Assembly: GCA_030603365.1 (NCBI GenBank)
Contig: JAUVXV010000005.1
Location: 32,001-96,000, forward strand
Length of the DNA: 64,000 nucleotides
Direction of reading: 5' to 3'
From: Candidatus Heimdallarchaeota archaeon
GTDB taxonomy: Archaea > Asgardarchaeota > Heimdallarchaeia > Heimdallarchaeales > Heimdallarchaeaceae
Shown: positions 2,025-59,572 of the stretch, piece by piece
Layout of the letters: each line of letters begins with the position of its first letter
Numbering within the stretch: the stretch's first letter is position 1
Made by a program: the position numbers and the translations under genes
Notes under the pieces: generated by a model
Seen by the model: the letters and a program-made list of their open reading frames with translations, nothing else
Databases searched by the model: none
Told to the model about the DNA's origin: nothing

Positions 2025-2861
2025 ATGACAATTAACTATACTGCTATTCTACCTCATGGTTTCAATCTTATAGAAAATATTTATCCTAATCAAGGTGAAA
2101 AATGGCAGAACCTGATTGAAGCAATGAATACTGTCGCTTCCGAGGTTTATTCTGCAGATCCAGAAGTAATAATTATTGCTTCTCCTCATAATCTTCGTAT
2201 TGATGGTCAAATCGGTATCATAACTTCAGAATGGCTAGAAGGAACTTGGTGGAATGATGAAAAGACTGACAAAGTCCATCTTAAACATAGATGTGATAGA
2301 GAATATGCTCAACTAATTTATGAGAGGTTAAAAAAAGAAAACATGCCAGTTGTAGCTGTTAATTATGGCGCTGCAGGTGGAGAGTATTCAGCAATGAAAA
2401 TGGATTGGGGTACTCTAATTCCTCTATGGTATATCAATAAAATCTATTCAGCTGAAAATCGAGAAATTCCTCCAGTTATCCTTATTACACCTTCTCGAGA
2501 AATACCTTGGAAGAACCTAGTTAACCTCGGTAGTATTTTGAACGGTTTATCTTTGAATAATGGTAAAAAAGTTGTATATATTGCAAGTTGTGATCATGGT
2601 CATGCTCATGATCCAGACGGTCCTTATGGATATCATCCTGCTTCCAAAGTTTTTGATGAACAGATTTGTGAGATGATTAAAAATAATAATTTGAGCAAAC
2701 TTATGGAACTCTCGGAAGAATTTATTGATCATGCTAAACCTGATAGTTTTTGGCAGATGCTCATTTTGCTGGGTATTCTAAATGTAACTGAATTGAAAAA
2801 CGATTTGTGTGTCTATGAATGTCCCGAATATTATGGTATGATAGTTGCTTCTTTTAAATAG
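2025..2861 (+). CDS. LigB/MEMO-like extradiol ring-cleavage dioxygenase family protein
   Basis: LPHG, IIIASPH, MDWGTLIPL, IASCDHGHAH, YYGMIVA motifs. Confidence 0.8.
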   Translation: MTINYTAILPHGFNLIENIYPNQGEKWQNLIEAMNTVASEVYSADPEVIIIASPHNLRIDGQIGIITSEWLEGTWWNDEKTDKVHLKHRCDREYAQLIYERLKKENMPVVAVNYGAAGGEYSAMKMDWGTLIPLWYINKIYSAENREIPPVILITPSREIPWKNLVNLGSILNGLSLNNGKKVVYIASCDHGHAHDPDGPYGYHPASKVFDEQICEMIKNNNLSKLMELSEEFIDHAKPDSFWQMLILLGILNVTELKNDLCVYECPEYYGMIVASFK

Positions 2862-2928
2862 ATAATCAGATAATCTTTAAAGGAAAGCTTTCTTTTTTTA
2901 TTCCAGTCATTATATGATGTGATACATA

Positions 2929-3675
2929 ATGAAAGACCAAATCGGTAAAGAATTCATGAAAAAAACTCAGTATAAATTTACATCACAATCAGATCAAAGT
3001 CAACATCATCCAAATCCACCTTTACAGATGGAATATGCTCACAAAATGAGAACATTTGATCTACCCAAACCTGAAGAAATTGAGGTTAAAGAATTAATAT
3101 TACGTAAGGCAATTGAAAACCGTAAGAGTGTAAGAAAATATTCTGATGAATCGTTTTCTTTAATGGAGTTAGCATGGCTACTATGGACAACTCAAGGAGT
3201 AAAAGAAGTTATGAAAGATAATTATGCAACTTTAAGAACAGTCCCTTCTGCAGGAGCAAGACATGCATTTGATACTTTCTTATTAATTAATAATGTTGAA
3301 GGTTTAGAGCCTGGTATTTACAGATACTTAGCACTTGAGCACAAGTTATTAGAATATATTATTGAGGATGGAATAGCTGACAAAATTGTTGAAGCATCTT
3401 ATGGACAAAAAATGGTTAAGAATAACGCTGTCACTTTCATCTGGGTAGTAGACATATACAGAATATTTTGGAGATATGTTGAAAGAGCTTATAGGTATAT
3501 TCATATCGATGCGGGGCATGTCTGTCAGAATCTTTATCTTGCTGCTGAAAACATTGGTGCTGGAGTTTGTGCAATTGCAGCCTTTCATGATGAAATTTTC
3601 TCTGAGGTTCTGAAATTAGATGGTGAAAACCATTTTGTTGTTTATTTAGCTTCTATTGGAAAGAAAAAGGATTAG
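2929..3675 (+). CDS. SagB/ThcOx-family nitroreductase-like FMN oxidoreductase
   Basis: RKSVRKY, RTVPSAGARH, DAGHVCQNLYLAAE motifs. Confidence 0.85.
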   Translation: MKDQIGKEFMKKTQYKFTSQSDQSQHHPNPPLQMEYAHKMRTFDLPKPEEIEVKELILRKAIENRKSVRKYSDESFSLMELAWLLWTTQGVKEVMKDNYATLRTVPSAGARHAFDTFLLINNVEGLEPGIYRYLALEHKLLEYIIEDGIADKIVEASYGQKMVKNNAVTFIWVVDIYRIFWRYVERAYRYIHIDAGHVCQNLYLAAENIGAGVCAIAAFHDEIFSEVLKLDGENHFVVYLASIGKKKD

Positions 3676-28281: not shown

Positions 28282-29007
28282 TTAATCTATCAAATGAATA
28301 TTCTTTGATTCCTCAATCTGGATATTGATTATTTCATTGTCTTTAACAAGTACTAGTAATCCTTCATTATTTATTCCATCACAATTGTATTTTTTTAACA
28401 TGTATCTATGCATTTTGCTAAGATTTAACAGGTTTGTATTGTATTCAGAAATTAGTTCGTTGACATGTTCGGATTTTAATTTTTCTAGGTATGCAAAAAG
28501 GGTCTCAGTTAATGATTCTATAAGAATACCCATATTGGAAATACATTTAATTTCTTCTGAAATACTTGTGGCTTTAACTCCCTCCACTTTATTCAGGTCT
28601 TCTTTTTTAATATTGATGTTCAAACCAATTCCAATAAGTAGATGATTTATCTGACTACTATGTATTTCAAGTAAGATACCACCTAATTTCTTGTTGTTTA
28701 GATAGATATCATTTGGCCATTTTATTTTGATGTCTAGTTTGTAAAGTTCTTTGAGTGTTTGTTGAATACTTAAAGCTGTTATGTAATGGATCATTCTCAT
28801 CTGCTTCTGGTTAATACTCTTTTCAAGAGCAAGAACATATGTTCCATAGAATCCACCTTTAGGAGAAACCCACTTAGAATTTTCTCTTCCTTTTCCTTCT
28901 AGTTGCTCATCTGCAATAATTAGAAAAGGTTCAGTGCTCTTTTTACGAAGATGATTTGCAACAATATCCATAGTAGAAGAAATACTATCATATCTAATAA
29001 TTCGCAT
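28282..29007 (-). CDS. birA: Biotin--[acetyl-CoA carboxylase] ligase (no N-terminal HTH)
   Basis: ISSTMD, ADEQLEGKGR..SKWVSPKGG, IKWPNDIY..KKLGGIL, GIGLNI; start 29007 preferred over 29061. Confidence 0.9.
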   Translation of the reverse strand: MRIIRYDSISSTMDIVANHLRKKSTEPFLIIADEQLEGKGRENSKWVSPKGGFYGTYVLALEKSINQKQMRMIHYITALSIQQTLKELYKLDIKIKWPNDIYLNNKKLGGILLEIHSSQINHLLIGIGLNINIKKEDLNKVEGVKATSISEEIKCISNMGILIESLTETLFAYLEKLKSEHVNELISEYNTNLLNLSKMHRYMLKKYNCDGINNEGLLVLVKDNEIINIQIEESKNIHLID

Positions 29008-29136
29008 TTTCTCTCTATTGAATATCACAAGAAACACTTTACACGAGCTGTTAATAGACATTATTACATCTTGAGGTTATAAAATTTATTTACTATACAA
29101 GGAAAATCTATTTTTATTGGAATTGTAATTATTTGT

Positions 29137-30717
29137 TTGATGGTCAAAAAAACAGAGTACTCATCAGAAGATGAGGAAAAGAACAAATATGATGATTTGG
29201 AGAATAAAAGGATTCAAAGTAGAGAAGGAGGGGGAAAGAAAAGAATTGAAAATCAACATAGTAAAGGAAAGCTCACTGCAAGAGAGAGAATCGAAATACT
29301 TGTTGATGAAGATTCATTCATTGAATTGGATTCCTTTGTTACTCATCAATCTGCCAAATTTGATATGTCTAAAAATCGACCGTATGGTGATGGTGTTGTA
29401 ACAGGTCATGCAAAAATCGCAGATAGACCTGTTTATCTTTATAGTCAAGATTTCACTGTTTTTGGTGGTAGCCTAGGTAGAGCCCAAGCTACGAAAATAT
29501 GCAAAGTTATGGACCTTGCAGTAAAAACTGGAACACCTATCATAGGTCTACTTGATTCAGGAGGAGCCAGAATTCAAGAAGGTGTAGCATCTTTAGCCGG
29601 TTATGGGGATATATTCTTTCGGAATACTTTAGCTTCAGGAGTAATTCCTCAAATCTCTGTTATATTGGGACCTTGTGCAGGTGGAGCAGTTTACTCACCT
29701 GCCTTAACAGATTTTGTACTTATGAATAAGGAAAATTCGTTTATGTTTGTTACTGGTCCAGAAGTAGTAAAAGCTGTCACAGGAGAGGAGATTTCTTTTT
29801 ATGAGTTGGGGGGAAGCGAGGTACATAGAAGTAAAACAGGAATATGTCATCTAGTGGGAGAAACTGAAGAAGAAACTTTAGGACTAGTTAGAAAATTATT
29901 ATCATACTTGCCTTCAAATAATCTAGATGATTCACCTACATATTCTCCCCTCCCCAAGGTTAACGAGCAGTTAATTCTTAGAGATTTAATTCCACAGAAA
30001 GATAATGAGCCCTACGATATGAAAAATATAATCTGTACGATAGTTGATTCTGATAGTTTTATTGAACTACAAGAAGACTGGGCTAAGAATATGATAATTG
30101 GTTTCTCAAGGATCAATGGTGATACTATTGGGATTATTGCTAACCAACCTATGTTTATTGGAGGTTCAATTGACGTTAATGCATCTGACAAAGCATCTAG
30201 ATTTATTCGTTTCTGTGATTCCTTTAACCTACCAATTTTAACATTTGTTGATGTTCCCGGATTTTTACCTGGAGTAAAACAAGAATATGAAGGTTTAATC
30301 AGACATGGTGCAAAATTGCTTTATGCCTATTCAGAAGCAACTGTTCCAAAAATTTCAATTATTATTCGAAAAGCATATGGTGGGGCTTACATAGTTATGA
30401 GTTCCAAGCATTTAGGGACAGACTTTAACTTAGCATGGCCAACAGCTGAAATTGCAGTTATGGGATCCGAAGGTGCTTGTAAAGTGCTTTACAAGAACAA
30501 ACTTAACGATGTAGAAAAACCAGAAGAGGTATTAGCAGAATTTGCTAAACAATTTAAAACAGAATTCGCAACACCTTATCAAGCAGCTGAATTGGGATAT
30601 ATCGACAAAGTGATTTTTCCAGAAGAAACTAGGAAAGAGATAATTCTCACTCTAAACATTCTTCAAAATAAAAGGGAACAGACACCAAAAAGGAAACATG
30701 GAGTGCCACCAGTTTAG
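29137..30717 (+). CDS. Acyl-CoA carboxylase carboxyltransferase subunit (PccB/AccD-like), copy 1
   Basis: GKLTARERI, GDGVVTG, DSGGARIQEG, GPCAGGAVY, VDVPGFLPG, RKAYGGAY, KRKHG. Confidence 0.93.
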   Translation: MMVKKTEYSSEDEEKNKYDDLENKRIQSREGGGKKRIENQHSKGKLTARERIEILVDEDSFIELDSFVTHQSAKFDMSKNRPYGDGVVTGHAKIADRPVYLYSQDFTVFGGSLGRAQATKICKVMDLAVKTGTPIIGLLDSGGARIQEGVASLAGYGDIFFRNTLASGVIPQISVILGPCAGGAVYSPALTDFVLMNKENSFMFVTGPEVVKAVTGEEISFYELGGSEVHRSKTGICHLVGETEEETLGLVRKLLSYLPSNNLDDSPTYSPLPKVNEQLILRDLIPQKDNEPYDMKNIICTIVDSDSFIELQEDWAKNMIIGFSRINGDTIGIIANQPMFIGGSIDVNASDKASRFIRFCDSFNLPILTFVDVPGFLPGVKQEYEGLIRHGAKLLYAYSEATVPKISIIIRKAYGGAYIVMSSKHLGTDFNLAWPTAEIAVMGSEGACKVLYKNKLNDVEKPEEVLAEFAKQFKTEFATPYQAAELGYIDKVIFPEETRKEIILTLNILQNKREQTPKRKHGVPPV

Positions 30718-30727: not shown

Positions 30728-32239
30728 TTACCTTCGTTGTTGTTCAAGTCTACTTTGTTCTCTCCATTTACTCTTCTCTTTCTTAATTTTACTTAGTTTT
30801 TGCTCTTTATTCTTTTGTTTTGAATTGTGTGCTGTCTTTGCTTTAAGCATGGCAATGAGCTTTAACTTCTGATACTGGTTCATTAACTGATTAATCTTAT
30901 TTTCATTCAAGAAGTCACTAGTAATTTCTCTATTCAGGAATTCATGAGTCTGAATTATCGCTTTATGAAGATCTATGTTAGTTTTTATTCCTGAAATTGA
31001 CAATTCCTTTAATGCTATGAGAGATTTTTGTATAGTTTCTTCTCTATTTCTTCCTTTAACTATTAGTTTTCCAATTAGAGAATCATATTGGTTAGGAACT
31101 TGATAATTTGGATAGATAAACGTATCAAATCTAACATTATTATTCTCAGGGATACTTAGATTCGATATTCTACCCATCTGTGGATATAACCCTTTTAAAG
31201 GGTCCTCGGCATTGATTCTGAACTCAAAAGCATGCCCTTCAAATTTTATATCACTCTGATCAAACTGGAGTTCTTCATTGTTAGCAATTCTAAGTTGTTG
31301 AATAACAAGATCAATTCCCGTAATCATTTCAGTAATAGGGTGTTCAACTTGAATACGCGGGTTGATTTCATTGAAAAATAATTCATCATCCTTCCAGAGA
31401 AATTCAACAGTTCCAATATTGTTGTAAGATAGATTCTTTGCTAGCATACAAATTTTCTCTCCCAAATCATTTCTTTTTTCTGAGGATATAAATGAAGGAG
31501 CTTCTTCAATTATTTTTTGATGTGATCTTTGGATTGAACATTCTCTATCACCTAATTGAACAATTGCACCATGATTATCTGACATAAATTGCATCTCAAT
31601 ATGCCTGGGTTCTCGAATGTAGCTCTCTAGGAAAACTGCATTATTTCCAAAGTATTTCTTAGCAATAGATTGACATCCTGTTAAACTTTTTTCTAAATCT
31701 TCTGGTCTTTCAACAATTTCGATTCCAATCCCTCCACCCCCAAAAACTGCTTTAATTATTATTGGATAACCAAGAATTTCAGCTAATTTCTCAGCTTCAG
31801 AAACAGATTCAATTATATTAGATGAGCCTGGAATAACTTGAATACCAACATCTTCAGCCATTTTTTTAGCTTCAAGTTTGTTCCCTATTTTATACAACAC
31901 TGAAGAAGTAGGACCTATGAAAATCATTCCTTGTTTTTCAACTTCCTTTGCAAAATTTGCATTTTCGCTAAGAAAACCATAACCAGGATGAATTCCGTTA
32001 GCCTTGGACTTTAATGCAAAGCTAATGATTTTATCTATATTCAAATACGTTTCTTGAACAGAACCATTTCCCAAACAAAATGCTTCATCAGCCATCTTTA
32101 CATGAAGTGATGAAGAATCAATCTCTGAATAGATTGCGACAGTTTTTATTTTCAAAAGCCGGCATGCTCTTATTACCCTTACAGCTATTTCTCCACGGTT
32201 GGCTATAAGGATTTTATTAAGCATTTGAAAATATTTCAC
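30728..32239 (-). CDS. Biotin carboxylase, copy 1, with epsilon-like C-terminal tail
   Basis: ILIANRGEIA, IHPGYGFLSEN, RECSIQR, EINPRIQVEHP, RINAEDP, YDSLIGK. Confidence 0.92.
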   Translation of the reverse strand: MKYFQMLNKILIANRGEIAVRVIRACRLLKIKTVAIYSEIDSSSLHVKMADEAFCLGNGSVQETYLNIDKIISFALKSKANGIHPGYGFLSENANFAKEVEKQGMIFIGPTSSVLYKIGNKLEAKKMAEDVGIQVIPGSSNIIESVSEAEKLAEILGYPIIIKAVFGGGGIGIEIVERPEDLEKSLTGCQSIAKKYFGNNAVFLESYIREPRHIEMQFMSDNHGAIVQLGDRECSIQRSHQKIIEEAPSFISSEKRNDLGEKICMLAKNLSYNNIGTVEFLWKDDELFFNEINPRIQVEHPITEMITGIDLVIQQLRIANNEELQFDQSDIKFEGHAFEFRINAEDPLKGLYPQMGRISNLSIPENNNVRFDTFIYPNYQVPNQYDSLIGKLIVKGRNREETIQKSLIALKELSISGIKTNIDLHKAIIQTHEFLNREITSDFLNENKINQLMNQYQKLKLIAMLKAKTAHNSKQKNKEQKLSKIKKEKSKWREQSRLEQQRR

Positions 32240-32420: not shown

Positions 32421-34034
32421 ATGTCGTTTTTATTCGACTTAAATGATACTAGTTTAATGTATCAGAAACCTAAGAATTTAACTGAGATTCAAGAAAACAA
32501 TAAGTATACTACTCTACATGATAAGAGAAAAAAGAGTAGAGAAGGAGGAGGGGAAAAAAGGATTGAGAATCAACATCAGAAAGGAAAATTAACTGCCCGT
32601 GAAAGGATTGAACTTTTAGTTGATGAAAATTCTTTCAATGAGATTGATGCTTTTGTTACACATCAATCTACTAAATTTAACATGTCAAATAATCGACCTT
32701 TTGGAGATGGTGTTGTTACAGGTCATGCAAAAATCTCAGGTAGGACTGTCTATATTTATAGTCAAGATTTCACAATTTTTGGAGGAAGTTTGGGGAGAGC
32801 TCAAGCAACTAAAATTTGTAAAATAATGGATTTAGCAGTAAAAACAGGAAATCCAATAATAAGCTTACTTGATTCAGGTGGAGCTAGAATACAGGAAGGG
32901 GTTGCTTCTCTAGCGGGATACGGAGATATTTTCTATAGAAATACCCTAGCTTCTGGAGTAATTCCTCAAATTTCTGTTATACTTGGACCATGTGCTGGGG
33001 GAGCAGTTTACTCTCCAGCTTTAACAGATTTTGTTTTGATGAATAAAGAAAATTCCTTCATGTTTGTTACTGGTCCAGAAGTTGTAAAGGCCGTTACAGG
33101 AGAGGAGATCTCATTCTATGAATTGGGAGGAAGTGAAGTTCATAGTAATAAAACAGGATTATGTCATTTAGTTGGAGAAACCGAAGAAGAGACTTTAGAT
33201 CTTGTAAGGAAGCTATTTTCCTATCTGCCTTCTAACAATTTAAATGATGCTCCATTAGAAGCCAATTTACCAGAAGTAAATAATCAAAAAATTCTCAGAG
33301 ACCTGATCCCAGAAGAAGACAATGAACCTTATGATATGAAGGGTATTATTGGTGTTATCTTTGATTCTGATAGTTTTCTAGAATTGCAGGAAGATTGGGC
33401 AAAGAACATGGTAATTGGTTTCTCAAGGATAAATGGAAACACAGTTGGAATCATCGCAAATCAACCATTATTCTTGGGAGGAGCAATTGATTTTAACGCT
33501 GCAGACAAAGCATCCAGATTTATACGATTTTGTGATTCCTTTAACATACCAATATTGACTTTTGTTGATGTGCCTGGTTTCCTTCCAGGTATTAAACAAG
33601 AACATGAAGGAATTATCAGACACGGAGCAAAGCTTCTGTTTGCATATTCTGAAGCTACTGTTCCCAAAATCTCTGTTATAGTACGCAAAGCATATGGAGG
33701 GGCTTATATTGTGATGAGTTCCAAACATTTAGGAAATGATATTAATTTAGCTTGGCCAACAGCTGAAATAGCAGTTATGGGATCTGAGGGAGCATGCAGA
33801 ATACTCTATAGAGGTAAATTGAAAGAAGCTGAAAATCCAGATCAAGTTTTAGATGAATTTACCAACCAATTCAAAGAAGAATTTGCTAATCCATATCAAG
33901 CAGCTGAATTGGGTTACGTTGACAAAGTTGTTTTTCCAGAAGAGACTAGAAATGAAATTATCGTTTCTCTTAGTATTTTGAGAAATAAAAGAGAGCAAGC
34001 ACCAAAGAGGAAACATGGAATTTTTCCAGTTTAA
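32421..34034 (+). CDS. Acyl-CoA carboxylase carboxyltransferase subunit, copy 2
   Basis: Same motifs as copy 1 and highly similar to it; stop abuts the RBS of the megasynthase. Confidence 0.93.
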   Translation: MSFLFDLNDTSLMYQKPKNLTEIQENNKYTTLHDKRKKSREGGGEKRIENQHQKGKLTARERIELLVDENSFNEIDAFVTHQSTKFNMSNNRPFGDGVVTGHAKISGRTVYIYSQDFTIFGGSLGRAQATKICKIMDLAVKTGNPIISLLDSGGARIQEGVASLAGYGDIFYRNTLASGVIPQISVILGPCAGGAVYSPALTDFVLMNKENSFMFVTGPEVVKAVTGEEISFYELGGSEVHSNKTGLCHLVGETEEETLDLVRKLFSYLPSNNLNDAPLEANLPEVNNQKILRDLIPEEDNEPYDMKGIIGVIFDSDSFLELQEDWAKNMVIGFSRINGNTVGIIANQPLFLGGAIDFNAADKASRFIRFCDSFNIPILTFVDVPGFLPGIKQEHEGIIRHGAKLLFAYSEATVPKISVIVRKAYGGAYIVMSSKHLGNDINLAWPTAEIAVMGSEGACRILYRGKLKEAENPDQVLDEFTNQFKEEFANPYQAAELGYVDKVVFPEETRNEIIVSLSILRNKREQAPKRKHGIFPV

Positions 34035-34044
34035 GGTGATTTTA

Positions 34045-37000
34045 ATGAAAACAAAAAGACAAATCGAAAAAGAGTTAATACCAAATAAAATCATTTGGGG
34101 ATTTTCTCCAAAAGGTATAAGCAATCCACAATTATCTATAGAACTCTCTCTTAAGGGAGGCGTAGGACTTATAGATCTTGAAGGATTTGATGACCACTCA
34201 CTCACTAGTATCATAACTGATTGTAGTACTAAAATTCCAGAAGATAACCTCTGGGGAGTAAGAATCTCTGAAGCTTCTCACATAGAAGTTTTGAATAAAT
34301 TTGACTTCATTCCACTACTTATCTTACCGGATAAAGTAAATGAAGAGTTGTTAATCGGACTAACTTGCAATTATACCTGGATAGTAGCTGAAGTAAATAG
34401 CCTCTCTGAAGCTCAATCAAAAACTGATTGGGCTGACTTCTTTCTTGTAAAAGGATTTGAAGCAGGTGGAAAGATAGGAGAAACATCTTCCTTTATTCTA
34501 ATACAAGAATTCACTGAAGCTGGCTTTCCCTTCATTATTCAAGGTGGATTTGGAGTTTACAACATTATTAGCGCATTAATTGGAGGTGCATTAGGAGTTG
34601 TACTTGAAGAACAATTGTCTCTACTTCCAGAATGTCCTCTTACTAAAGAAACAAAAGATTATCTTTCATCTCTTGATGAAAATGATACCTATATTGTTGG
34701 AGAAAGTTTTGAATTAAAGTATAGACTAGCTGGAAAAATAGCAAATAAATGGATAAGAGATTTCAAAAAATTTGAAAAAAGCTTGACACGTGAAAGCGTT
34801 CAGGAATTATCACACAAAATAGATAAAATCTCAAAGAATTCGTTGTTCTTGTCGGATCCTGAAATTAAAAATTCTTTTCTTCCTCTTGGAGTAGGCTTGA
34901 GATTTGCTTCATTCATATTAGAAAAATTTGGAGACTTGTCTTCTTTTCTAAAAGGAATTGAGAACATAATTAACAGTCAAATGAGTAATCTTTCAGAACA
35001 TTGGCCATTTGCTGAGGATAGTGATTTTGCAAAGAGTCTTGGAATTAAATTACCCATAATTCAAGGACCTATGGCAAATATTACTGATAATGCTAAGTTT
35101 GCATCTAAGGTTTCGGAAGAAGGAGCTTTGCCTGTTCTAGCTTTTGGAGGATTATTAAAAGAAGAAACAGAAGAACTTTATCTAGAGTTTAATTCAAAGT
35201 TTCCAGTAGATGCTCCTTATGCAGGTGGAATTATAGGATTAGAAGTAATGAAAGAGAGACGAGAAGCTCATATTTCCTTGATAAAGAAAAACAACACACC
35301 TTATTGTCTTTTAGCTGCAGGCTCTATTCAACTAGCATCTAGAATCCAAAAAGAAGGTACTAAAGTCATTCTTCATACTCCTGCATTAGCACTTTTCAAA
35401 GAAGCGCATCAAAATGGAATTGAACATCTTATTTTAGAAGGAAGTGAATGTGGGGGACATATTGGCACTCTGACATCATTAACTCTCTGGGAGACGATTA
35501 TTCAGTTTATAGAGAAAGAGAAAACCAATCTTAAACAAAAGATAAATGTGATTTTTGCTGGAGGAATTAGTGATGCGAAAAGTTCTGCTATGCTAGCAGG
35601 AATGATAGCTTGTCATTCAGAGTACATTTCTCCAGGAATACAAATGGGAACAGCTTATTTGTTCACTGAAGAAATTGTTAAGAGTCGAGCTTTAACATCA
35701 CAATATCAAGAACATCTTCTTAATTCTTCTAATACAAAAGTGATAGGATCAACAGTAAATACTCGAGCTAGAGTAATTCCTTCAGATTTTGTAGAATCTA
35801 CATTAGAAGTAGAACTTGAGAGAATTAGTTCAGGATTATCGATACAAGATAGAAAGAAATTATATGAAAAAGATAACTTGGGAGCTCTACGAATTGCAGC
35901 AAAAGCTGAAGTGTGGAATGATAAACACATACCTGGTGGTGATACAACTCAGTTTGTAGCTGCTAGCAAAAAGATTCAGGATAGCAAAGGATGTTACATG
36001 GCTGGAGAACTTATTAGCTTGAAAAGAAACATATTGCGAATTAAAGATCTTCATACTGATGTTGTAAATTCAAGTAGAACATACGTTAAACATCAAATTA
36101 CAGCAATAGAAAAAATGCTCCCTCACGATACTATAAAAGAAGAATCTCACTCTGATACTATATCTTTACCAATTGAAAATAGAGTAGCAATAGTTGGGAT
36201 GGGCTGTATTTTTCCAGATGCTTTGAACATCAATCAATTTTGGTCAAATGTAACTGATAAGAAATATTCGATAACAGAAATTCCTGAATCAAGATGGAGT
36301 ACTGAATTATATTTCAACGAGGATAAAACAGCTCCAAATAAATCCTATTCCAAAATTGGTTCTTTTATAACAGATTATGAATTTGCTTCTATCAAGTATC
36401 GAATACCACCTAAAATCGCTGAGAGGATGGATGAAGTTCAAAAATGGGCTATAGATGCCGCAAAACAAGCTCTAGACGATGCTGGAATTCCTACCGATGG
36501 AAAATCAAGATTGCCTGTTTCTGTAATAGTAGGGAATTCATTAGGAGGAGAGAATCAACGAACTACAAACAAAGGACTTTTTGTTCCTGAATTTCTAAAA
36601 GAAATGAAGAAAAACGAAGTATTTCAAGAGCTTTCAAAAGAAAAACAGAAAGTTATGATAAAACAACTTGAAGTATTCTATACTGAAAAATATCCTCCAG
36701 TAACAGAAGATTCTATGCCAGGTGAATTATCTAATGTGATTTCTGGAAGAATTGCAAATGTTTTCAATTTAACTGGAAAATCTATGACAACGGATGCAGC
36801 TTGTGCTTCTAGTATAGCAGCAATTGATACTGCTGTTAATTCTCTCCTTTCAAGAGAATTTGATGTTGCTCTTTCAGGTGGAGCAGATAGATCAATGGAT
36901 ATTTCCACCTATATTAAATTCTCTAAAATAGGTGCATTATCTGCAACAGGAACAAGACCTTTTGACGAAAAAGCAGATGGTTTCGTTATGGGAGAAGGAG

Positions 37001-40000
37001 CAGGTTTTGTTGTTCTTAAACGTCTAGAAGATGCAATTAAAGATGGAAATAAAATTTATGCTGTTATTGCTTCAATCGGATCTTCTTCTGATGGTAAAGG
37101 TAAAGCAATTACCGCTCCCAACCCAGAAGGACAAAAACAAGCTATTCAAATGGCTATGAGAAAGGCACATATTAATACAAATGAGGTCGATTATATCGAA
37201 GCTCATGGGACTTCTACTATTGTCGGTGATGCTGTTGAATTAAAAGTTTTGGAAGAAGTTTTTGAAAACCGTAAAAGAGAACAGAAAATTGCTGTAAGCT
37301 CTATAAAAAGCCAAATTGGACATCTTAAGAGTGCGGCTGGAATAGCTTCAATAATCAAAACATCTTTGTCTCTTCATCACAAAATTCTTCCTCCTTCAGT
37401 TAATGTGGAAAAACTGAATCCAAAAATAAATTGGAAAGAATCTCGATTGAAAGTAATCACCGAAACAGAGGATTGGAATCTTTCCAATAACGAAGTAGGT
37501 AGAGCTGGAGTATCTGCATTTGGTTTTGGCGGAACCAATTATCATGCGATTTTAGAAGAATTCAATCCTGAAAAAATCCTTTATGAAGAGAAACCCAAAC
37601 ATATTTCTTCAGTTCTACAAGAGGATGATACTGTTCAAGAACAAATTTCTCTTCAAAGTATTCTTCCTAAGCTTTGTTACATGTTTACTGGTCAAGGTAG
37701 CCAATATCTAGGCATGGCTAAACAACTCTATGAGAATTCTGATATAGTAAAGAGATTTTTCGAAAAAGCTGAAAAAATTTGGTACAATTACTATACTTAT
37801 AGCTTCAAGGAAATTGTATTTGGTTCAGAAAAATTGTCAGTAGAATCAAATAAGAAGAGATTAACCGATACAAAGTTTACTCAACCTACCATCTTTGTTG
37901 TAGATGTAGCAATAGCTAATCTCTTAGCAGAAGAGGGGATTGAACCGGACATTGTTGCAGGACACAGTTTGGGAGAATATGCTGCTTTGGTTATTGCTGG
38001 AGTTCTATCTTTTGAGGATGGATTAAGGGCAGTTATTGAACGGGGGAGATCTATGAGCAGAGCTGGGAATTCAGTTCCTGGTGCTATGGTAGCAATTCTT
38101 GCTCCTATAGATAAAGTAACAGAGATTGTCAAGGAAGTAAAAAATAACTATGTTACTGTAGCCAATTACAACTCTAAAAATCAAACTGTAGTATCTGGAG
38201 AAATAGAAGGTATTGAGCAGATCTTAGAAATCTCAAAGAAGAAGGGAATTACAGCAAAGAGACTGAATGTATCTACTGCATTCCATTCAAAGATTGTAAA
38301 ATCAGTTGAGGAAGAGATGGAAAAGGTTCTTGCAAGAATAGAATTCAAAAATCCACGAATACCTGTATATAGCAATGCTACTGGAAAAGCATACCCTTCA
38401 GAGCCAGAACAGATGAGAAATCTACTAGTTGAACAGGTCAGCTCTTCTGTTTTATGGGTAGATGAAATTCAGAATATTTACAATGCTGGTGCTAGATATT
38501 ATGTTGAGATAGGTCCAAAGAAAGCCTTATTCCATTTTGCTAAGGATATCTTAAAGGAGAAAACTGACATTTCAACTTTCATTACACTATTACCTAAAGA
38601 AGATGAGATTGATACAATTCAATCAACCTTGAATCAACTTAGTCAATTTGTTGGTTTTGTTTCATCTTCAGATTCTAGTACCCAAACCAAGGAAACAAGC
38701 TTAAATATAGCAACTAAATCTATAGATAGAATAGTTCTATCATCGGATAATGATTTTCAAAATTTTGTGAAAAATAATAGCAAGTATCTTGAGAATATCT
38801 TGAAAGCAGGGCACGAACTTTATTCAACATATTTAGGAGAAGAAAGAAAATCAGAAAAGTCTCATTCACACTTCGGGATTGACCATCACTTGATTGGTGT
38901 GACAGGAGTAGGAATTGGTCTTCCAGGTAAACAGAGGAATGTTTTCGATGATGAAAATATCGATTCAATCTTAGCTGGGGAGAATTTCATTGATTCTATC
39001 GCTCAGGAAATTAAACAAGACATTCTAGATAAGAATATCAACCGCTTAGTTAAATCTCCTGATGGATCAGCTTCCTTCGAGGAAATAGATGATCTAACTA
39101 AGGTAATTAGCCTAGCAGGACAGATAGGTAAATTTGATCCAGTTGGAGATTTTGGAATAAACGAAAAGTTTCTGAATTCTCTTGACATAACCTTCCAGTT
39201 AGCTATTTGTGCAGGATTAGATGCTTTGACTGATGCAGGAATACCTTTAGTCAAATCTTCATTTACGACTTCAACAGGAAAAGTACTGGAAGGTGAATGG
39301 GCTTTACCTGAATCTCTTCAAGAAGAGACAGGGATAATATTTGCTTCAGCATTTCCAGGTTATGATAATCTAATTAAAGAAATTCAAGAACATAAAAACC
39401 AAGGTGATGATAGGAAATTTAGCAGAAACTTTCTGTTTAAGATTCTTTCATTGGGACATGCTCAATTTGCTCAACTCATCAAAGCAAAAGGACCAAATAC
39501 CCAAATTAATGCTGCATGTGCATCTACTACTCAAGCAATAGGAATCGCGGAGGATTGGATACGTACAGGACGTTGTAATCGAGTAATAGTAATTGCAGCT
39601 GATGATGCCTCAAGTGAAAATCTTCTGCCTTGGATAGGTTCAGGATTTTTAGTTGCAGGAGGTGTTACAACTCAAGATAAAGTCGAAAATGCTGCATTAC
39701 CATTTGGTAAAGATAGACACGGATTAATCATAGGTTCAGCTGCAGCTTCTCTAGTACTTGAGAGTGAAGAAGCATATAATAAAAGAGGAGTAAAACCAAT
39801 AGTAGATCTAATTGGTTCTACTTTTGTAAACAGTGGATTTCATGGTTCAAGGTTGGATGTTCAACATATCTCTCATGTTTTCCAATCTTTTGTTGAGAAG
39901 ATAGAAAAGCAATATAACATTTCAAGAAAAGAGCTAGCAGAAGATGGAATGTTTGTTTCTCATGAAACTTATACTCCTGCTAGAGGAGGAAGTGCAGAAT

Positions 40001-43000
40001 CAGAGATAGAAGCACTCAAAAGAGTGTTTGGGAAGGATTCAAGTAAGATTACTATTGTTAACACAAAGGGTTTCACAGGACATTCAATGGGAGCTGGAAT
40101 AGAAGAGTGTATTGCAATAAAATCTATAGAAAAAGGAAAAATTCCCCCTATTGCTAACATGGACAAAATAGATCCGATTTTCTCTGAGTTGAACTTTTCC
40201 AAAGGTGAAAATCGACGCGTAAAATATGCTATAAGATTAGCTGCAGGATTTGGCTCTCAGATAGCTTTTACTGCTTTTAGACTTAATACATATGAAGATA
40301 GATATGATTTAATTCTTCATGAAGAATGGTTAAATCAACTAGGAGGAGATATGAGAAGTACTTTTCTGGATGGTCGAGTTTTGAAGCTTAGAACAAGATC
40401 TAGACAAGAACAAGTATCTCATGTTGCATCAACAACATCTATTGTTCAAGAAACAGTGGTATTCAAAGAAATTCTCCCTGGTGTGATTTCAATTATTTCT
40501 GAAATAACTGGTTATGAAGCCAATCTGATTGAAGCTGAGATGCACCTTGAAGAGGATCTGGGAATAGATACTGTAAAACAAGCCGAGATTTTTGGTATTG
40601 TTCGAGAAAAATGGGGTTTAGATTTAGACGAAACAGTAAGTCTTGTTGAATTTACATCACCACAAAAAATAGCTGAGTATATTCAAAGTAATATGAAAGG
40701 TGTGAATGATATTGAAACAGCTGTTTCACAAGTCAAAGGTGGTCAGTTTGAGGATATATCCTTTAAGATTAGAGAAGTAGTATCTGAAACAACAGGATAT
40801 GAACAAGATTTAATTGAATACGATATGGATCTTGAAGAAGATCTGGGAATAGACACTATCAAACAAGCAGAGATTTTCGGTGACATAAGAGAAATATTTG
40901 ATTTGCCAGTTGATGAGTCAGTGAGTTTAGCTGAATTCAGGTCAATAAATGACATTGCGAAATATGTGTCTCAGTCTATTGGAGCTGAACAAAAAATCAT
41001 TACAGAGAGCTCTGATGATCAAAAACAAAAACAAATTACAGCTGACAAAGTTGAAGATGAAAAGAGCCTTGTTCGTATTGACAATCTAATTACAGTACCA
41101 GTTCCTTTGAATAAAAAAGATGCTGAGAAAATTACTCTAAAAGATATTTCTTCATTAGTAGTCAACATAAATTCAGATTTGCGGAACAGCTTAACGGAAA
41201 CATTGGTTGAGAAAAAGGCTAAATTTGTTGAACATAATTTACTAAAAGATGAAATTTCTTCAATACCAGAAAAGGAATTTGACCTCTTCATTTTAGTTCT
41301 CCCAGGTGTAAAATCAGAACCTGGTTATATCGACCAAGAGATTTACAGAAAACTTTTTTCGCTATTTCAATCTCTTGAATTGCAGAAAGGAAATAGGATT
41401 GTCGCATTATCTGAAGAGAGTTTCTTTGGTCTTAAAGAAGGTGCTAATCCAATATCTGGAGGAATATCAGGATTTGTGAAAACCTTAGGTTTAGAGTTTG
41501 ATATGCCCTATAAGCACATTTATTCTGAAAACATCGCTGATATAATTCAAGAGCTTGAATACTGGGATGGTATAATAGAAATTGCATTTGATAAAAAAGG
41601 ACGTTTCACTCTTGCTAATCTTGATATTAGTAATTATCTTACTCAGTCATCAAAAATTGATATAGAGAAAGATGATCTGATTTTAGTAACTGGAGGTGGA
41701 CGAGGTATCACCTTCAAATGCATTGAAGCTTTAAGTACAATAGTAAAATCTAAAGTTGCTATAATTGGAATTGAGGACATCTCTGATATTAATTCTGATA
41801 TGCTTCAATTTTCCGATGATGATTTAGAACTAAGAAAACAACAACTTATCAAAGAATTAAAAGAATCAGAAGAGAAAGTTACACCTGTTCTCATAGATAA
41901 ACACTGGAACAGATTCCTTTTCGGCTTAGAAGTTACTCGCAACATTGAAAAACTAAGAAAAATGAGAATTCAGGCAGAATATAGACGCGTAGATGTAACT
42001 AATAAAGAAGCTGTTGAGAAAACAATCAGAGAAATTGAAGACCACTTCCAAACATCTGTTAGTCATATCATACATGGTGCTGGTCTAGAAGAATCAAAAT
42101 CTTTCAAGAAGAAGAAAATAGATTTTTCCAATCTTATAGTTTCTGTGAAGGTTGAAGGAATTTGGAACGTTCTCAATTCTGTTAACACTAAGAAACTAAA
42201 ACGAGTTGTATGTTTCACTTCAATTGCTGGTCGGTATGGTAACAGAGGTCAAGTAGACTATTCTTTTGCAAATGGTTACTTATCTAGACTATGTTGGAAG
42301 CTAAATCAACAGGGTGTATCTGCACTTGCTTGCGATTGGTCTGCCTGGGGAGGAGTTGGAATGGCAACAAGAGGCTCTATAATGGACATATTAACATCTC
42401 AAGGGATTAATCCTATACCTTTACAAGACGGGACTGAAACTTTTGTTAAGCTCTTTCTAAACACAATCGGAAATGAAGTTGTGGTTTCTTGCGGTCTTGG
42501 TCCATTTGAGCAATTATCTAACATCCAATCGGAGATTAAAGAAAAGAAATATCCTATGATCAATAGAATTGAATATTCTGAATCAAAATTCTATGCAAGA
42601 AAGTCAATATCTTCTTCAACTGATCTTTACTTAAACGATCATCAAATTCAACAAACACCTATATTTCCAGGAGTTATGGGGTTGGAAATGTTTGCTGAAA
42701 CATTTGAACTAGTCTCAGCACAGAAACCTGTTAGTTTCACAAAAGTAGAATTCAATACAGCACTGAAGATTCAACAATCACAAGCTAAAGAAGTTTACGT
42801 TGAATATAAATCAGATTTAGGAGAAATGCGGTTAAAATCTGATTTTGTTGCAAAAATCGAACCAAGCAAAACAAGAGAAATAGAACACTTTAGAGTGAAT
42901 GTAGATACTTTATCAAAAAGAAGGAAATCAAAGAAATCTAAACATATAATTAGAGAATCGAAGATTAATCTGCTCACAAAAGAAGATATTTATTCATTCT

Positions 43001-56092: not shown

Positions 56093-57343
56093 ATGGCTAG
56101 AGAAGTGTGGAGGACAGAAGTGATGGAAACTACTCCCCACACTGCACTCGACCTTCTCTGTCATCAAACCAAGAACCTCTATAATAGGGCAATGTATGTA
56201 TTCAAACAACATTATACTCAAACAAAACATTGGCTGTCGTATCAGCAATTAAACAGGCAGCTGAAACAAGAGCCGTGCTACAGAATCTTGCCAGTTCATA
56301 CAGCCCAACACACCCTCAAGCTCCTCTCCCGCAACTGGAATGGATTTGGGAGGGCAATTAGGGAATTTCACAGCAATCCTCAAGCATTCCTTGGTAAACC
56401 CCGTCCTCCAGGATATAGGCCGAAGAATGGCCAACAAGTAGCGATTTTTACTAACCAACAAGCTAAGTTAAGGGATAATAGGTTACTTTTACCCAAGAAA
56501 GTTCCGTTTTCTATCAAAACTCGCTTACCAGACCATGTGAAACTTAAGGAAGTGCGTGTTGTCCCTCGAGGGGTAGGGTATACAATCGAGCTAGTTTATA
56601 GTAAGCTTGTTCCAGAAGTAGAGGTGCAAGGAACAAACATAGGAGCGATAGACCTAGGAGTCCACAACCTTCTCACTTATGTAGACAACATCCAGGGAAG
56701 ACCGATTGTTGTCAAGGATGAAGGAAAAGGGATCAAATCTACTATCAGGTACTATTTGAAAGAAATCAAGAAATTGCAAAACAAGTATGCACAGCAACAA
56801 AGATTAGCATTGAAACAACAGAACAGATTAGAGTACGGACAACGATTTCGCCACCTTCGTGAAATAAAACGTAGACTAGTGAAAGAGTGGATCCATCAGA
56901 TGAGTAGGAAGTTTGTCCAGCTTTGGGTACAAACAGGAATCCAACACGTATATATAGGATATAACCCCCTCTGGAAACAACAAGTGAAGTTAAGGAAGAA
57001 GACCACCCAGATGTTTGTTATCCTCCCGTTTGACCGATTTATCCACGCGCTCAAATACAAGGCTGAAGAGCATGGAATCATTGTTGAAAGGGTAGAAGAA
57101 TCTTACACTTCCAAGTGTAGTTTTCTAGATAATGAATCCCCTCAAAAGCATTCTACTTACCAAGGACGAAGACCCAAACGAGGGTTGTTCAAATCTGCAA
57201 CAGGCGTACTCATCAATGCTGATGTGAATGGGGCATACAATATTTTACTCAAAGGCGATCCGCAAGCACTACCTTCTTGTAGTGTGGGCGGGGTAGGAGG
57301 ATATGTGATTTATCCGCTTAGATGGAGTTTCGAGCTTTATTAA
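56093..57343 (+). mobile_element. tnpB: TnpB RNA-guided nuclease gene of a non-autonomous IS200/IS605/IS607-type element
   Basis: KNLYNRA, PRPPGY, GAIDLGVHNL (RuvC-I), YIGYN..WKQ, LKYKAEEHGI, EESYTSK, NADVNGAYNI (RuvC-III); visibly higher GC than flanks; no tnpA; element ends not resolved. Confidence 0.9.
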
Positions 57344-57385: not shown

Positions 57386-59572
57386 ATGGTTATTAAGGAA
57401 TTCAAATATGACGTTCCTATATTAGATAAGGGATATGCAAACAAATCTCTATACATCAATCTTGATACATATGAAATAAGAATAGATGATGTAACTGAAG
57501 AAATGAAAGAGAAGTTCATTGGTGGTAAAGGTTTCGACCTTTATATGATGTGGAAACACTTGCCAAAAGATAAAAAAACAAAATGGGATGACCCAGAAAA
57601 TGTTCTTTGTATCGCAGCAGGTGCTTTGGGCGGAACAACTAACTTCCCTGGTTCTGGGAAAAGCATAGTAACAGCTGTTTCTCCTCTTACTGATATCATT
57701 ATTGACTCAAATGTTGGTGGTTATTTCGGTCCTTATCTGAAATACTCTGGATTCGATGTTCTAGCTATCCAAGGAAAATCAGATAAGGAAATTTATATTT
57801 ACATTGATGGAGAAGAAGGAAGAATAGTTATCGAAGATGCTGAGGACTTATCATCTGAAACCTACCAGTTAGGTACTATTCTAACAGACAAATATTGCGG
57901 AGAAGAAAAATTCAAACGAGATGTTTCTGTAGTTTCCGCTGGTCCAGGAGCAGAGAACACCCGTTGGGGTTGTCTGAATTTTAGTTATTATGATACCCGA
58001 AGAGGATATGCAAGATACAAGCAAGCTGGACGTGGGGGAACAGGTTCTGTTTTCCGAAATAAGAAACTTAAGGCACTCGTTGTTAAGAAACTCAAAGTGG
58101 TTACAAGAGGTAATAATCCAGCTGATCCTGAAGCTCTAAAAGAGATAGGTAAGAAGCACACACAAGAAATGATACAACTCGATCCCAAACAGAATGAAAT
58201 GAGGATGGTAGGTACAACTCATCTGGTTACAATAATGAACGATTATGATTTATTACCAACTAAAAACTTCAAGTATGGAAGTGATCCTCAAGCTGATAAA
58301 ATTGGTGCAGAAGTTTATCGTAATCTGTTCGAAAAAGGACCAGATCCATGTTGGAAAGGATGTGCGGTCGCTTGCACACACGGTGTAAAGGAATTTGTCC
58401 CTAAAACTGGTCCCTACAAAGGTCAGAAAGTATCAGTTGATGGTCCAGAATATGAAACTATTGGAGGAGTAGGTTCCAATTGGTATGTATGGGATCCTGA
58501 AGCGGTAATTGAGACAAACTTCTATTGTGATACTTACGGTCTAGATACAATTGGTATTGGAACAGGAATAGCTTTTGTTATGGAATGTTATGAATGTGGA
58601 ATTCTAGACAAAGAGAAAACTGGTGGTTTAGAATTAAATTTTGGAAATCAAGAAGCTGCAATGGAACTCATTCATCAAATGGCTAGAGGAGAAGGTTTTG
58701 GGGTCATAGTTGGTCAAGGAGTAAGAAGGATGAAGAAATACTTTGCTGAGAACTTTGGAGCTGATATTAACTTCCTTAACGACATAGGGATGGAATCAAA
58801 AGGCTTGGAATTCAGCGAATATATGACCAAAGAGTCTCTGGCTCAACAAGGTGGATATGGTTTTGCACTCAAAGGTGCACAACATGATGAAGCATGGTTG
58901 ATCTTTGAGGACATGGTCAGAGGTAATCTCCCAACATTCGAGAAAAAGGCAGAAGCTTTACATTGGTTCCCAATGTGGAGAACATCATTCGGATTACTTG
59001 GTTTGTGTAAGCTTCCATGGAATGACATAATACCAGAAGATAATCGAGAATTCGCCGAAGGAAAGATACGCAAAGAAGGTAGTTATGTTCCAGATGATTT
59101 AGCAGATCCTGCAAAAATTCCAGAACATGTCCAGAATTATGTTCAGTACTATAATGCTGTCACTGGAAGAGAAATAGACTCTGTAGAATATATCCGAATG
59201 AGTGAAAGAGTGTATAATTTTCAGAGAACTCTGAATCTGATGTTGATTCCTGATGGAACAACTTACAGAGAAATGGATACTATTCCTTACAGAGCTATGG
59301 GTCCTGTTACAGCAGAAGAATACCTTTCGAGAGAACAAGAGTATTATCTTAAACAGCTTAAAGACGAAATTGGTTTAAATCCGGATGGAATGAGTGTAAA
59401 AGAGAAAATGGGTGCTATTCGCAAACATCGTGAAGAAGCTTATAATAAACTAAAGGATACAGTTTATGAACGCAGAGGATGGACTAAGAACGGTGTTCCA
59501 ACAGTTAGGAAAATAAAAGAATTAGGGATGGATTTTCCTGAGATTATTGAATTAGTAGAACAACATCAATAA
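57386..59572 (+). CDS. Tungsten-containing aldehyde:ferredoxin oxidoreductase family protein
   Basis: FIGGKG, SPLT..IIDSNVGGYFG, QAGRGG.G...KKLKA, CWKGCAVAC, GPEYET, CDTYGLDTI, RGW..NGVPT. Confidence 0.92.
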   Translation: MVIKEFKYDVPILDKGYANKSLYINLDTYEIRIDDVTEEMKEKFIGGKGFDLYMMWKHLPKDKKTKWDDPENVLCIAAGALGGTTNFPGSGKSIVTAVSPLTDIIIDSNVGGYFGPYLKYSGFDVLAIQGKSDKEIYIYIDGEEGRIVIEDAEDLSSETYQLGTILTDKYCGEEKFKRDVSVVSAGPGAENTRWGCLNFSYYDTRRGYARYKQAGRGGTGSVFRNKKLKALVVKKLKVVTRGNNPADPEALKEIGKKHTQEMIQLDPKQNEMRMVGTTHLVTIMNDYDLLPTKNFKYGSDPQADKIGAEVYRNLFEKGPDPCWKGCAVACTHGVKEFVPKTGPYKGQKVSVDGPEYETIGGVGSNWYVWDPEAVIETNFYCDTYGLDTIGIGTGIAFVMECYECGILDKEKTGGLELNFGNQEAAMELIHQMARGEGFGVIVGQGVRRMKKYFAENFGADINFLNDIGMESKGLEFSEYMTKESLAQQGGYGFALKGAQHDEAWLIFEDMVRGNLPTFEKKAEALHWFPMWRTSFGLLGLCKLPWNDIIPEDNREFAEGKIRKEGSYVPDDLADPAKIPEHVQNYVQYYNAVTGREIDSVEYIRMSERVYNFQRTLNLMLIPDGTTYREMDTIPYRAMGPVTAEEYLSREQEYYLKQLKDEIGLNPDGMSVKEKMGAIRKHREEAYNKLKDTVYERRGWTKNGVPTVRKIKELGMDFPEIIELVEQHQ

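Follow-up and report, generated by a model that had tools for sequence, protein, structure and literature searches.

The megasynthase locus

The window analyzed here is a stretch of 64,000 nucleotides on contig JAUVXV010000005.1 of a Candidatus Heimdallarchaeota archaeon, and it contained the gene of a type I iterative fatty-acyl megasynthase, encoded on the forward strand by a single unbroken open reading frame (34015-44130, 3371 aa). The true start was probably Met11 at position 34045, as the initial annotation had it, since a Met was present at that position in 53 of 55 archaeal homologues; the protein would then have about 3361 residues. Domains were called with Pfam, NCBIfam, and family hidden Markov models, and the family profiles were built from 120 homologues. 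These searches gave the order pseudoER-ER-KS-AT-KS-ACP2-(psiKR)KR-DH-PPTase, comprising enoyl-reductase (ER), ketosynthase (KS), acyltransferase (AT), acyl carrier protein (ACP), ketoreductase (KR), dehydratase (DH), and phosphopantetheinyl transferase (PPTase) domains (Table 1). The initial annotation had read the same domains in one frame with boundaries that all agreed with the profiles, and only the psiKR subdomain was absent from its list. Pfam by itself matched two NMO/FabK stretches, two KS, AT, ACP, KR, PKS-type DH, and a PPTase. The megasynthase was not an assembly artefact because about two dozen related genomes carried the same KS1 in open frames of 3,200-3,600 aa. It was the only KS, AT, ACP, and PPTase detected in the host genome. 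The catalytic residues were invariant across about 120 homologues, and at the sequence level those for loading, both condensations, keto and enoyl reduction, dehydration, and pantetheinylation were all intact. A promoter scan gave a result at chance level.

Table 1. Domains of the megasynthase, followed by other genes of the window (positions are those of the window)
Feature	Position	Residues	Strand	Basis or remark
Type I iterative fatty-acyl megasynthase	34045..44130	~3361 aa from Met11	+	ORF and profiles
ERa, FabK-like TIM barrel, pseudo-ER	34066-34989	18-325	+	Family profiles, motifs, AlphaFold model
ERb, FMN-dependent FabK-type enoyl reductase, motifs intact, His482	35017-36096	335-694	+	Profiles, motifs, fold search
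KS1, PfaA-like type I ketosynthase, Cys930, His1064, His1103	36178-37581	722-1189	+	Profiles, motifs
AT, Ser1318, Arg1343, Ala-Phe-His1424	37666-38604	1218-1530	+	TIGR00128 fabD 239.7 bits, motifs
KS2, FabF-like ketosynthase, Cys1835, His1983, His2023	38890-40284	1626-2090	+	Profiles, motifs
ACP1, attachment motif G-I-D-T, Thr2186 (codon ACT at 40570)	40465-40689	2151-2225	+	Family profile
ACP2, attachment motif G-I-D-T, Thr2281 (codon ACT at 40855)	40750-40974	2246-2320	+	Pfam, family profile
psiKR, structural subdomain of KR	41071-41646	2353-2544	+	Family profile
KR, catalytic, Lys2712, Ser2736, Tyr2749, Asn2753 invariant	41671-42414	2553-2800	+	Pfam, motifs
DH, PKS-type double-hotdog, His2876, Glu3043, Gln3047	42547-43374	2845-3120	+	Pfam, motifs
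PPTase, Sfp/HetI-type, Asp3262, Glu3264, Lys3300, Glu3301	43462-44127	3150-end	+	Pfam, family profile, motifs
Biotin protein ligase BirA	28282..29061		-	Profile search
Second carboxyltransferase	29137..30717		+	81% identical to first; local duplication
Second biotin carboxylase	30728..32239		-	68% identical to first; local duplication
Acyl-CoA carboxyltransferase	32421..34034		+	10 bp upstream of likely synthase start
Alpha/beta hydrolase, Ser108-Asp197-His228 invariant	44127..44888		+	ATGA overlap with synthase stop
Biotin carboxyl carrier protein	44889..45377		-	Profile search
Biotin carboxylase	45382..46884		-	Profile search
Gtr1/RagA-like small GTPase	49639-50223			Profile search
TnpB/IS605-type gene	56093-57343			
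Aldehyde ferredoxin oxidoreductase	57386-59572			

Catalytic domains of the megasynthase

The two N-terminal barrels differed in their active sites. The catalytic His of the xEAGGH motif was missing from ERa in 98 of 98 homologues, and the Gly-Thr that holds the phosphate of flavin mononucleotide (FMN) was replaced by E/D-x-Q/H, that is, by an acidic residue; the earlier designation of a pseudo-ER was therefore correct. ERb kept G-P-M, G-G-H, and A-G-G in 101 of 101 homologues, and its FMN-phosphate site consisted of Gly followed by Thr or Ser (the roles of these motifs and the FabK definitions are given in PMC13311796). No BLAST similarity was found between ERa and ERb, which resembled each other at the profile level only. 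In the AlphaFold model, ERa and ERb formed one confident unit (pLDDT 94.0, pTM 0.94) whose best fold matches were FabK structures (TM 0.87-0.88 by target). FabK came first in both the sequence and the fold searches with the ER pair, and PfaD ranked 43rd in the fold search. We infer that ERa may have a structural part, taking the place of the second subunit of a FabK dimer. Kariarchaeaceae-type copies of the synthase had no ER pair and had a FabI gene directly downstream in 4 of 4 loci; enoyl reduction was therefore kept by replacement, and full reduction matters.

Cys-His-His was kept in KS1 and KS2 alike in 119 of 119 homologues. KS1 was PfaA-like, the best NCBIfam model for the protein was PfaA (TIGR02813, 883.8 bits, below the cut-off of 1010.1), and the best solved relatives of KS2 were discrete FabF enzymes. 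The intact Cys-His-His ruled out KS2 as an inactive Cys-less chain-length factor (CLF), and an intact KS occupied the "CLF" position in 119 of 120 acidobacterial-type homologues. The PfaA match, together with the tandem ACPs and a study in which the KS domains of a Heimdall metagenome-assembled genome (MAG) from Shark Bay mats were nearest to those of polyunsaturated fatty acid (PUFA) synthases (Chen et al. 2020, PMC7472256), raised the question of a Pfa-like PUFA synthase. Such a product is highly improbable, since no FabA-type dehydratase/isomerase (PF07977) was found in the megasynthase or in three genomes including that of the host, no PfaB-type AT or Cys-less CLF was present, and the ER was FabK-like with PfaD far down the fold list. 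The Shark Bay protein very likely belongs to the megasynthase family, although the architecture, distribution, residues, and lipid context were not described in that paper.

The Ala-Phe-His motif of the AT, a malonyl-type signature, was found in 120 of 120 homologues, and the Ser and Arg were also invariant. A predicted complex of KS1 and KS2 scored 0.49 against 0.00 for the best control, with at least 80% of contacts agreeing between runs and a partner pLDDT of at least 80. The mark used was reached by 58 of 80 solved complexes and by 2 of 110 mismatches, but the passes at or below 0.60 comprised only 7 solved complexes and both mismatches, so that passes in the range of 0.49 are more often wrong than right unless the pairing is likely beforehand. 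Because KS dimers are textbook knowledge, the pass may also stem from model memory, and the prediction lends weak support to a KS1-KS2 pairing.

Stand-alone KS2-like genes (frames of about 500-560 aa, about 50% identity) were located apart from the megasynthase in some relatives (G025:C1:136682, G029:C197:4685, G036:C8:519574, G028:C12:46578, and G038:C190:10086). In a single-contig genome, stretches of KS1 and the hydrolase were duplicated (G027:C1:485134-499007), which may be a local duplication or an assembly artefact. A divergent FabH-like gene, possibly a priming enzyme, adjoined the cluster of the ER-less synthase in Kariarchaeaceae-type genomes (L098:5061-6014; also L131, L133, and L135).

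The attachment site of both ACPs was Thr and not Ser. In two sets of archaeal and bacterial homologues, 330 of about 345 ACPs and 405 of 408 ACPs, respectively, also had Thr at this site. The simplest reading of these sequences is that the phosphopantetheine arm would be linked through Thr. No paper describing a Thr-linked carrier was found in our literature searches, which were made without most subscription journals. The S36T form of E. coli ACP cannot be pantetheinylated (PMC3340395), which would fit carriers that are inactive in a protein that acts on CoA thioesters or is a relic. We consider this very unlikely, since Thr was fixed in archaeal and bacterial members, the catalytic residues of the fused PPTase were kept in the family, the ACPs were amplified to as many as six, and a search of four carrier genomes gave no stand-alone ACP. 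The fused PPTase was also the only one found in the host genome with the PPTase profile of the family. The initial annotation had described the enzyme as self-priming; its intact fused PPTase was corroborated, but self-priming itself is uncertain because the attachment residue is Thr. A small stand-alone ACP-like frame of 83 aa was noted in a Hodarchaeales genome (G077, C1:2728564).

The number of ACPs was two in this protein and 2-5 in its orthologues, and the place of the ACP block varied among homologues: it preceded the AT, lay between the AT and KS2, or followed KS2. This variable position ruled out a two-module assembly line and fits an iterative ACP pool shared by both KS domains. The catalytic residues of the KR and DH were invariant except for a Glu/Asp swap in the DH. 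The cofactor loop of the KR (residues 2585-2587) was G-I-E or G-L-x in many Asgard copies and G-R-T/S in most bacterial ones, which possibly reflects a shift from NADPH to NADH.

Comparison with known synthases

The exact order ERa-ERb-KS-AT-KS-ACPn-KR-DH-PPTase was found in 68 of the top 120 homologues. Seventeen of the 68 were outside the Asgard set, and those that were named or placed in the tree were bacterial (Desulfomonilaceae clade), so the order was not a one-off. The description by the initial annotation of a fused, iterative, fully reducing synthase unlike the animal fatty acid synthase (FAS), fungal FAS, and canonical Pfa layouts was upheld. No characterized enzyme with the same order was found in a search of the PDB or in the literature, where no account of this architecture came up either, and an exact look-up of the protein gave no match.

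By its domain sequence, the megasynthase is best described as a fully fused form of the uncharacterized "Type R" secondary-lipid synthases. Type R was defined as KS-MAT-CLF-ACP(3-6)-KR plus a PPTase, where MAT is a malonyl acyltransferase, with a product that was not known (Shulse & Allen 2011, PMC3098273); the hosts named there were Koribacter, Solibacter, Elusimicrobium, and Roseiflexus, with an adjacent PPTase and often an acetyl-CoA carboxylase (ACC) gene. The Heimdall synthase shared the core order KS1-AT-KS2-ACP-KR with Type R, and proteins of the same acidobacterial families (Korobacteraceae and Bryobacteraceae) showed the order KS1-AT-KS2-ACP3-6-KR-DH, had Thr in their ACPs, and agreed with it in the KS2 motifs. 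It differed in its archaeal host, in the added N-terminal ERa-ERb, in having two ACPs instead of 3-6, and in its C-terminal PPTase, which was fused instead of being encoded by a separate downstream gene. In contrast to the 2011 account, the "CLF" had the full Cys-His-His in all versions, and the DH that followed the KR was not listed there. The family comprised at least 4,091 KS2 homologues at E<=1e-60, and a core without ER and PPTase (KS-AT-KS-ACP3-6-KR-DH) was highly abundant in Acidobacteriota, with Korobacteraceae and Bryobacteraceae among them. In the KS tree, which did not include the five named Type R proteins and had an unresolved backbone, the proteins of these two families were close homologues in a clade of their own.

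Among bacteria, Desulfomonile and other Desulfomonilaceae showed the identical order including ACP2, Thr ACPs, and the pseudo-ER (for example MBI4965598.1, 3549 aa). These fused bacterial homologues, which are uncharacterized, differed from the Heimdall synthase in sequence (about 31% identity) and in their neighbor, a TetR regulator instead of the carboxylase and hydrolase. The proteins of Desulfobacula (D. toluolica WP_014958977), Desulfospira, and Desulforegula had a third KS and no fused PPTase, and the ACPs of a Lujinxingia homologue were placed before KS2. Proteins of Desulfobacteraceae related to Type S (Desulfobacterium autotrophicum HRM2) had the order ERa-ERb-KS-KS-AT-KS-ACPn-KR-DH; the FAS II of D. 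autotrophicum is incomplete, and the Type S synthase was proposed as its core FAS (PMC3098273).

Compared with the Pfa PUFA synthases (PfaA-E and thraustochytrid PFA1-3), the Heimdall synthase had a similar PfaA-like KS1, tandem ACPs, KR, polyketide synthase (PKS)-type DH, FMN TIM-barrel ER, and two working KS domains, and paired ERs are also known from thraustochytrids (PMC13311796). It differed in being one chain with a single AT, in the FabK-type ER with one inactive copy, in the FabF-like KS2, and in the absence of the FabA-type DH, PfaB AT, and Cys-less CLF.

Fungal and mycobacterial (CMN) FAS I resemble the Heimdall synthase in all-in-one synthesis and in an FMN TIM-barrel ER, and fungal FAS I has a C-terminal PPTase. 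However, their order is AT-ER-DH-MPT-ACP-KR-KS(-PPT), their KS, AT, and DH belong to other lineages, and the Heimdall synthase lacked the acetyl/palmitoyl transferase pair. The ER of yeast FAS matched the ER pair weakly in the fold search (10-13% identity), and no fungal or mycobacterial FAS I was found among the top 60 PDB sequence matches. The ER pair was FabK-like, not PfaD- or fungal-FAS-like, and KS2 was FabF-like. The likeness to fungal and CMN FAS I is convergent. Animal FAS and modular type I PKSs, with the order KS-AT-DH-(MDR-type ER)-KR-ACP-TE, differed in the type of ER, in the DH, which followed the KR in the Heimdall synthase, and in the fused thioesterase (TE), which the Heimdall synthase did not have.

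Host and distribution

The host genome was 3.65 Mb in size and 89% complete, with an archaeal 16S gene. The closest relatives of KS1 were found in Candidatus Heimdallarchaeota MAGs (62-70%) and in other archaeal MAGs (63-78%), and close full-length relatives carried the name Heimdallarchaeaceae. Binning contamination was ruled out by the Nre, Mtd, and Gtr1/RagA GTPase genes in the window, by a GC content level with that of the genome, and by orthologues that formed family-level clades. The gene is native to an Asgard archaeon, most likely of the family Heimdallarchaeaceae.

Of the 61 relatives sampled, 48 had a KS1 orthologue, in many cases in a frame of 3,200-3,600 aa. A KS2 search of 400 genomes of the phylum gave 60 positive genomes: 24 of 30 in the host family, 12 of 16 in three other families of the order, 10 of 12 in family f6 (46 of 58 in these five carrier families), and 3 of 14 and 10 of 135 in two families of Lokiarchaeia. 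The synthase was found neither in family f5 (0 of 22), which was assigned to Hodarchaeales by ribosomal protein look-up, nor in the remaining groups. In the tree of KS1 and KS2, the copies of the host family, f6, the ER-less Kariarchaeaceae type, and Lokiarchaeia each clustered, and the Loki copies were sister to the host family (support 100, starred) on an unresolved backbone. Depending on the root, this grouping would fit the acquisition of the gene by some Lokiarchaeia through transfer. Monophyly of the Asgard synthases had a support of 74 and was neither shown nor rejected. The protein P0026, labeled "Hodarchaeota", was probably mislabeled because it grouped with the Loki copies. A Thermoplasmatota MAG (L169, GCA_049619235.1) had an ER-less copy with a carboxyltransferase, BioY, and a biotin carboxyl carrier protein (BCCP); the family therefore reached non-Asgard archaea too. 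Contigs of three metagenome runs contained short synthase pieces only and added nothing on structure, and no RNA run was listed among the sequencing runs that hold the sequence.

Gene neighborhood

The megasynthase was flanked by the genes of a biotin-dependent acyl-CoA carboxylase and by an alpha/beta hydrolase. A carboxyltransferase (CT) was located directly upstream of the synthase in nearly every archaeal locus examined, and the cluster BirA-CT-synthase-hydrolase-BCCP-BC, where BC is the biotin carboxylase, recurred in Harpocratesius, family f6, and other relatives. The hydrolase co-occurred with the ER-containing synthase in 27 of 30 and 9 of 12 genomes and was not found in the ER-less synthase family or in Hodarchaeales. 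Its closest folds were generic lipases and esterases, and the PKS release enzymes GrgF and DcsB appeared lower in the list. From its gene position, the hydrolase is a candidate trans-acting thioesterase. In family f4 (G037:C177 and G033:C276), the synthase was split after the AT into two overlapping frames, and the ACPs directly followed KS2; a rearranged synthase cluster was seen at G031:C199.

The host had second copies of the CT and BC, which may act on another acyl-CoA or may be recent duplicates. The duplicated carboxylase scored best with TIGR01117, a methylmalonyl-CoA decarboxylase/propionyl-CoA carboxylase (PCC)-type model. This match could be taken to mean that the product is a very long, methyl-branched, or partly oxygenated chain (Hgl/Ars-like, or a methylmalonyl-CoA-derived isoprenoid mimic), with KS2 reserved for a special final condensation, for example head-to-head. 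Two distinct active KS domains, the C22-C26 alkyl chains made by Pfa-like relatives (PMC3098273), and the fungal release enzymes DcsB and GrgF among the fold neighbors of the hydrolase would agree with such a product. It nevertheless appears unlikely, because the AT had the malonyl-type motif in every homologue, the carboxylase duplication was local with one copy at other loci, and the reducing set was complete, with FabI as a substitute where the ER was lost.

Lipid genes of the carrier genomes

Lipid genes were searched in 83 genomes of the class, 58 of which belong to the five carrier families. All 58 had PlsY and DegV/FakB (DegV/FakB with 3-18 matches each in the 30 of 30 genomes of the host family), and a FakA-like kinase was present in 54. 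A canonical geranylgeranylglyceryl phosphate (GGGP) synthase was found in a single one of the 58; it was located on a 7.6-kb contig (G021:C45:1467-2240) that was possibly mis-binned. Searches of the 89% complete host genome with PF01884, phmmer --max, and tblastn gave no GGGP synthase, and neither did Pfam and two protein queries in two single-contig relatives. The same search was positive in 123 of 135 Lokiarchaeia (about 1e-55), and 19 of 22 Hodarchaeales had divergent copies with scores of 1e-10 to 1e-15. The GGGP-synthase-family copy of Hodarchaeales family f7 was far below the NCBIfam cut-offs. Judging from these genomes, the enzyme that opens archaeal ether-lipid synthesis appears to be lost in the carrier lineages.

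The host had FakA-like kinases, 14 FakB/DegV matches, and three PlsY proteins. The FakA-like proteins were shortened to the N-terminal Dak2 part (214-330 aa). The genes fakA-fakB-plsY lay in a row in f6 genomes, and a plsY gene adjoined birA-CT-synthase in one single-contig relative and lay upstream at a similar distance in the other. In families f1 and f6, DegV/FakB was expanded to 23 matches per genome, and the PlsY paralogues reached 13 in f6. The glycerol-1-phosphate (G1P) dehydrogenase of the host was above the equivalog cut-off (451 > 413), and DGGGPS-like UbiA and CarS-like enzymes were found as best matches with scores below cut-off. Searches of the host for PlsX, full-length GpsA, and PlsC were negative. 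PlsC failed as a marker of a membrane role: all Hodarchaeales, in which no synthase was found, had it, and the searches gave no PlsC in the host family or in f6. The set thus resembled the FakA/FakB-PlsY route of Firmicutes in its FakA-like Dak2 proteins, many FakB/DegV proteins, and PlsY, and differed from it in the shortened FakA, the proposed G1P backbone, the lack of PlsX and PlsC, and a possible in-house source of fatty acid.

A host protein of 1,395 aa (G000:C2:2940-7127; L174:2943-7127, minus strand) had two activase domains, DUF2229, and HGD-D, which we take to be the domain set of the PlsA/Ger ester-to-ether reductase. Three split versions were found in the host (G000 C4, C11, and C15); the protein was also present in G030 and G056 and was not found in G036 or G077. 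It could turn esters into ethers.

Proposed function

The megasynthase very probably carries out de novo synthesis of fatty acyl chains, and membrane lipids are somewhat more likely than not to be the main destination of its product. We slightly favor the combined reading in which it is the de novo fatty acid synthase of the host and feeds glycerophospholipids. The initial annotation had assigned a secondary-lipid role and had missed the Asgard host, the Thr ACPs, and the lipid genes, which suggest a primary role in membrane lipids instead.

In the proposed route, the carboxylase would make malonyl-CoA, which the AT would load, and the PPTase would arm both ACPs on Thr. KS1 and KS2 would use one ACP pool iteratively, with priming or early steps and long-chain steps probably split between them, and the KR, DH, and ERa/ERb unit would reduce every cycle fully to yield a mostly saturated straight chain. 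The hydrolase would free the acid, FakAB would convert it to acyl-phosphate, and PlsY, which accepts G1P (PMC13400652), would esterify it to G1P in place of the missing GGGP synthase step. The DGGGPS-like enzyme could then fill the second position, giving a hybrid acyl-ester/isoprenyl-ether lipid; a PlsY paralogue could do so instead. CarS would activate the lipid product. The chain from synthase and hydrolase through FakAB to PlsY would thus fill the exact step of GGGP synthase. It is quite possible, though somewhat less likely than not, that this branch of Heimdallarchaeia replaced the first ether-forming step with fatty acid esterification, using a Thr-armed synthase together with FakAB and PlsY on G1P, and has hybrid acyl/isoprenyl or fully acyl/alkyl membranes. 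The combination of the synthase, FakAB-PlsY, and GGGP synthase loss was not found in the literature searched.

Alternatively, the acyl chains might have minor or specialized uses, such as protein or glycan acylation, lipoate precursors, or storage and surface lipids, with an archaeol membrane made through an unrecognized GGGP synthase and FakAB/PlsY acting mainly in scavenging. LipA was present in the host and two relatives, although it was not found in the carrier G056. An Acidobacteriota MAG with the synthase also had FabZ-type FAS II genes, so the enzyme was secondary there, and archaeol bilayers were predicted for Heimdallarchaeia in a 2025 study (PMC12042123). On the other hand, no GGGP synthase was found in the host or the two single-contig relatives, and both the many DegV and PlsY paralogues and the linkage of plsY to the synthase point to bulk use of acyl lipids. 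We therefore regard specialized uses as somewhat unlikely, but as an alternative of real weight.

Several observations weigh against the proposed function, and some of them also speak for this alternative. All 10 synthase-bearing Lokiarchaeia of family f20 kept GGGP synthase, and 9-11 Hodarchaeales genomes in which no synthase was found had FakA, DegV, and a weak PlsY; FakAB-PlsY can therefore serve scavenging alone. No G1P dehydrogenase-like gene, GGGP synthase, or PlsC was found in 12 f6 genomes, and the host also had no PlsC in the search. The absence of GGGP synthase was read from MAGs, and an enzyme that is very divergent or non-orthologous could have escaped the search. The Thr carriers would need unusual chemistry, and the folds nearest to the hydrolase were generic. 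Finally, the carrier families are kin, and the gene pattern therefore represents one or two evolutionary events and not a statistic.

Archaea have been said to be without FAS I and complete FAS II and nearly always without ACP (bioRxiv 10.1101/2024.07.05.601840), the way in which the archaeal host of eukaryotes acquired fatty acid membranes has been called an enigma (PMC12872458), and the role of Asgard PlsY has been stated as unresolved (PMC9385802). If the proposed function is true, a lineage-wide FAS I-type enzyme, the loss of GGGP synthase, and the gain of FakAB-PlsY would together represent a living archaeon crossing the lipid divide. The synthase is a parallel experiment and not the source of eukaryotic fatty acid synthesis, because its layout is not homologous to that of eukaryotic FAS and it was not found in Hodarchaeales. 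The architecture itself is a fully fused variant of a known family that some bacteria share. What makes it interesting is its host, its Thr carriers, its pair of active KS domains, and the way it fits an apparent loss of the first archaeal ether-lipid step. For biochemistry, the points of interest are a single chain in which two dissimilar KS domains are both active, the pseudo-ER/ER unit, and the possible Thr-linked phosphopantetheine.

Other features of the window

The GC content of the window was raised to about 0.37-0.40 around 56-60 kb, and the TnpB/IS605-type and aldehyde ferredoxin oxidoreductase genes of Table 1 lie in this part.

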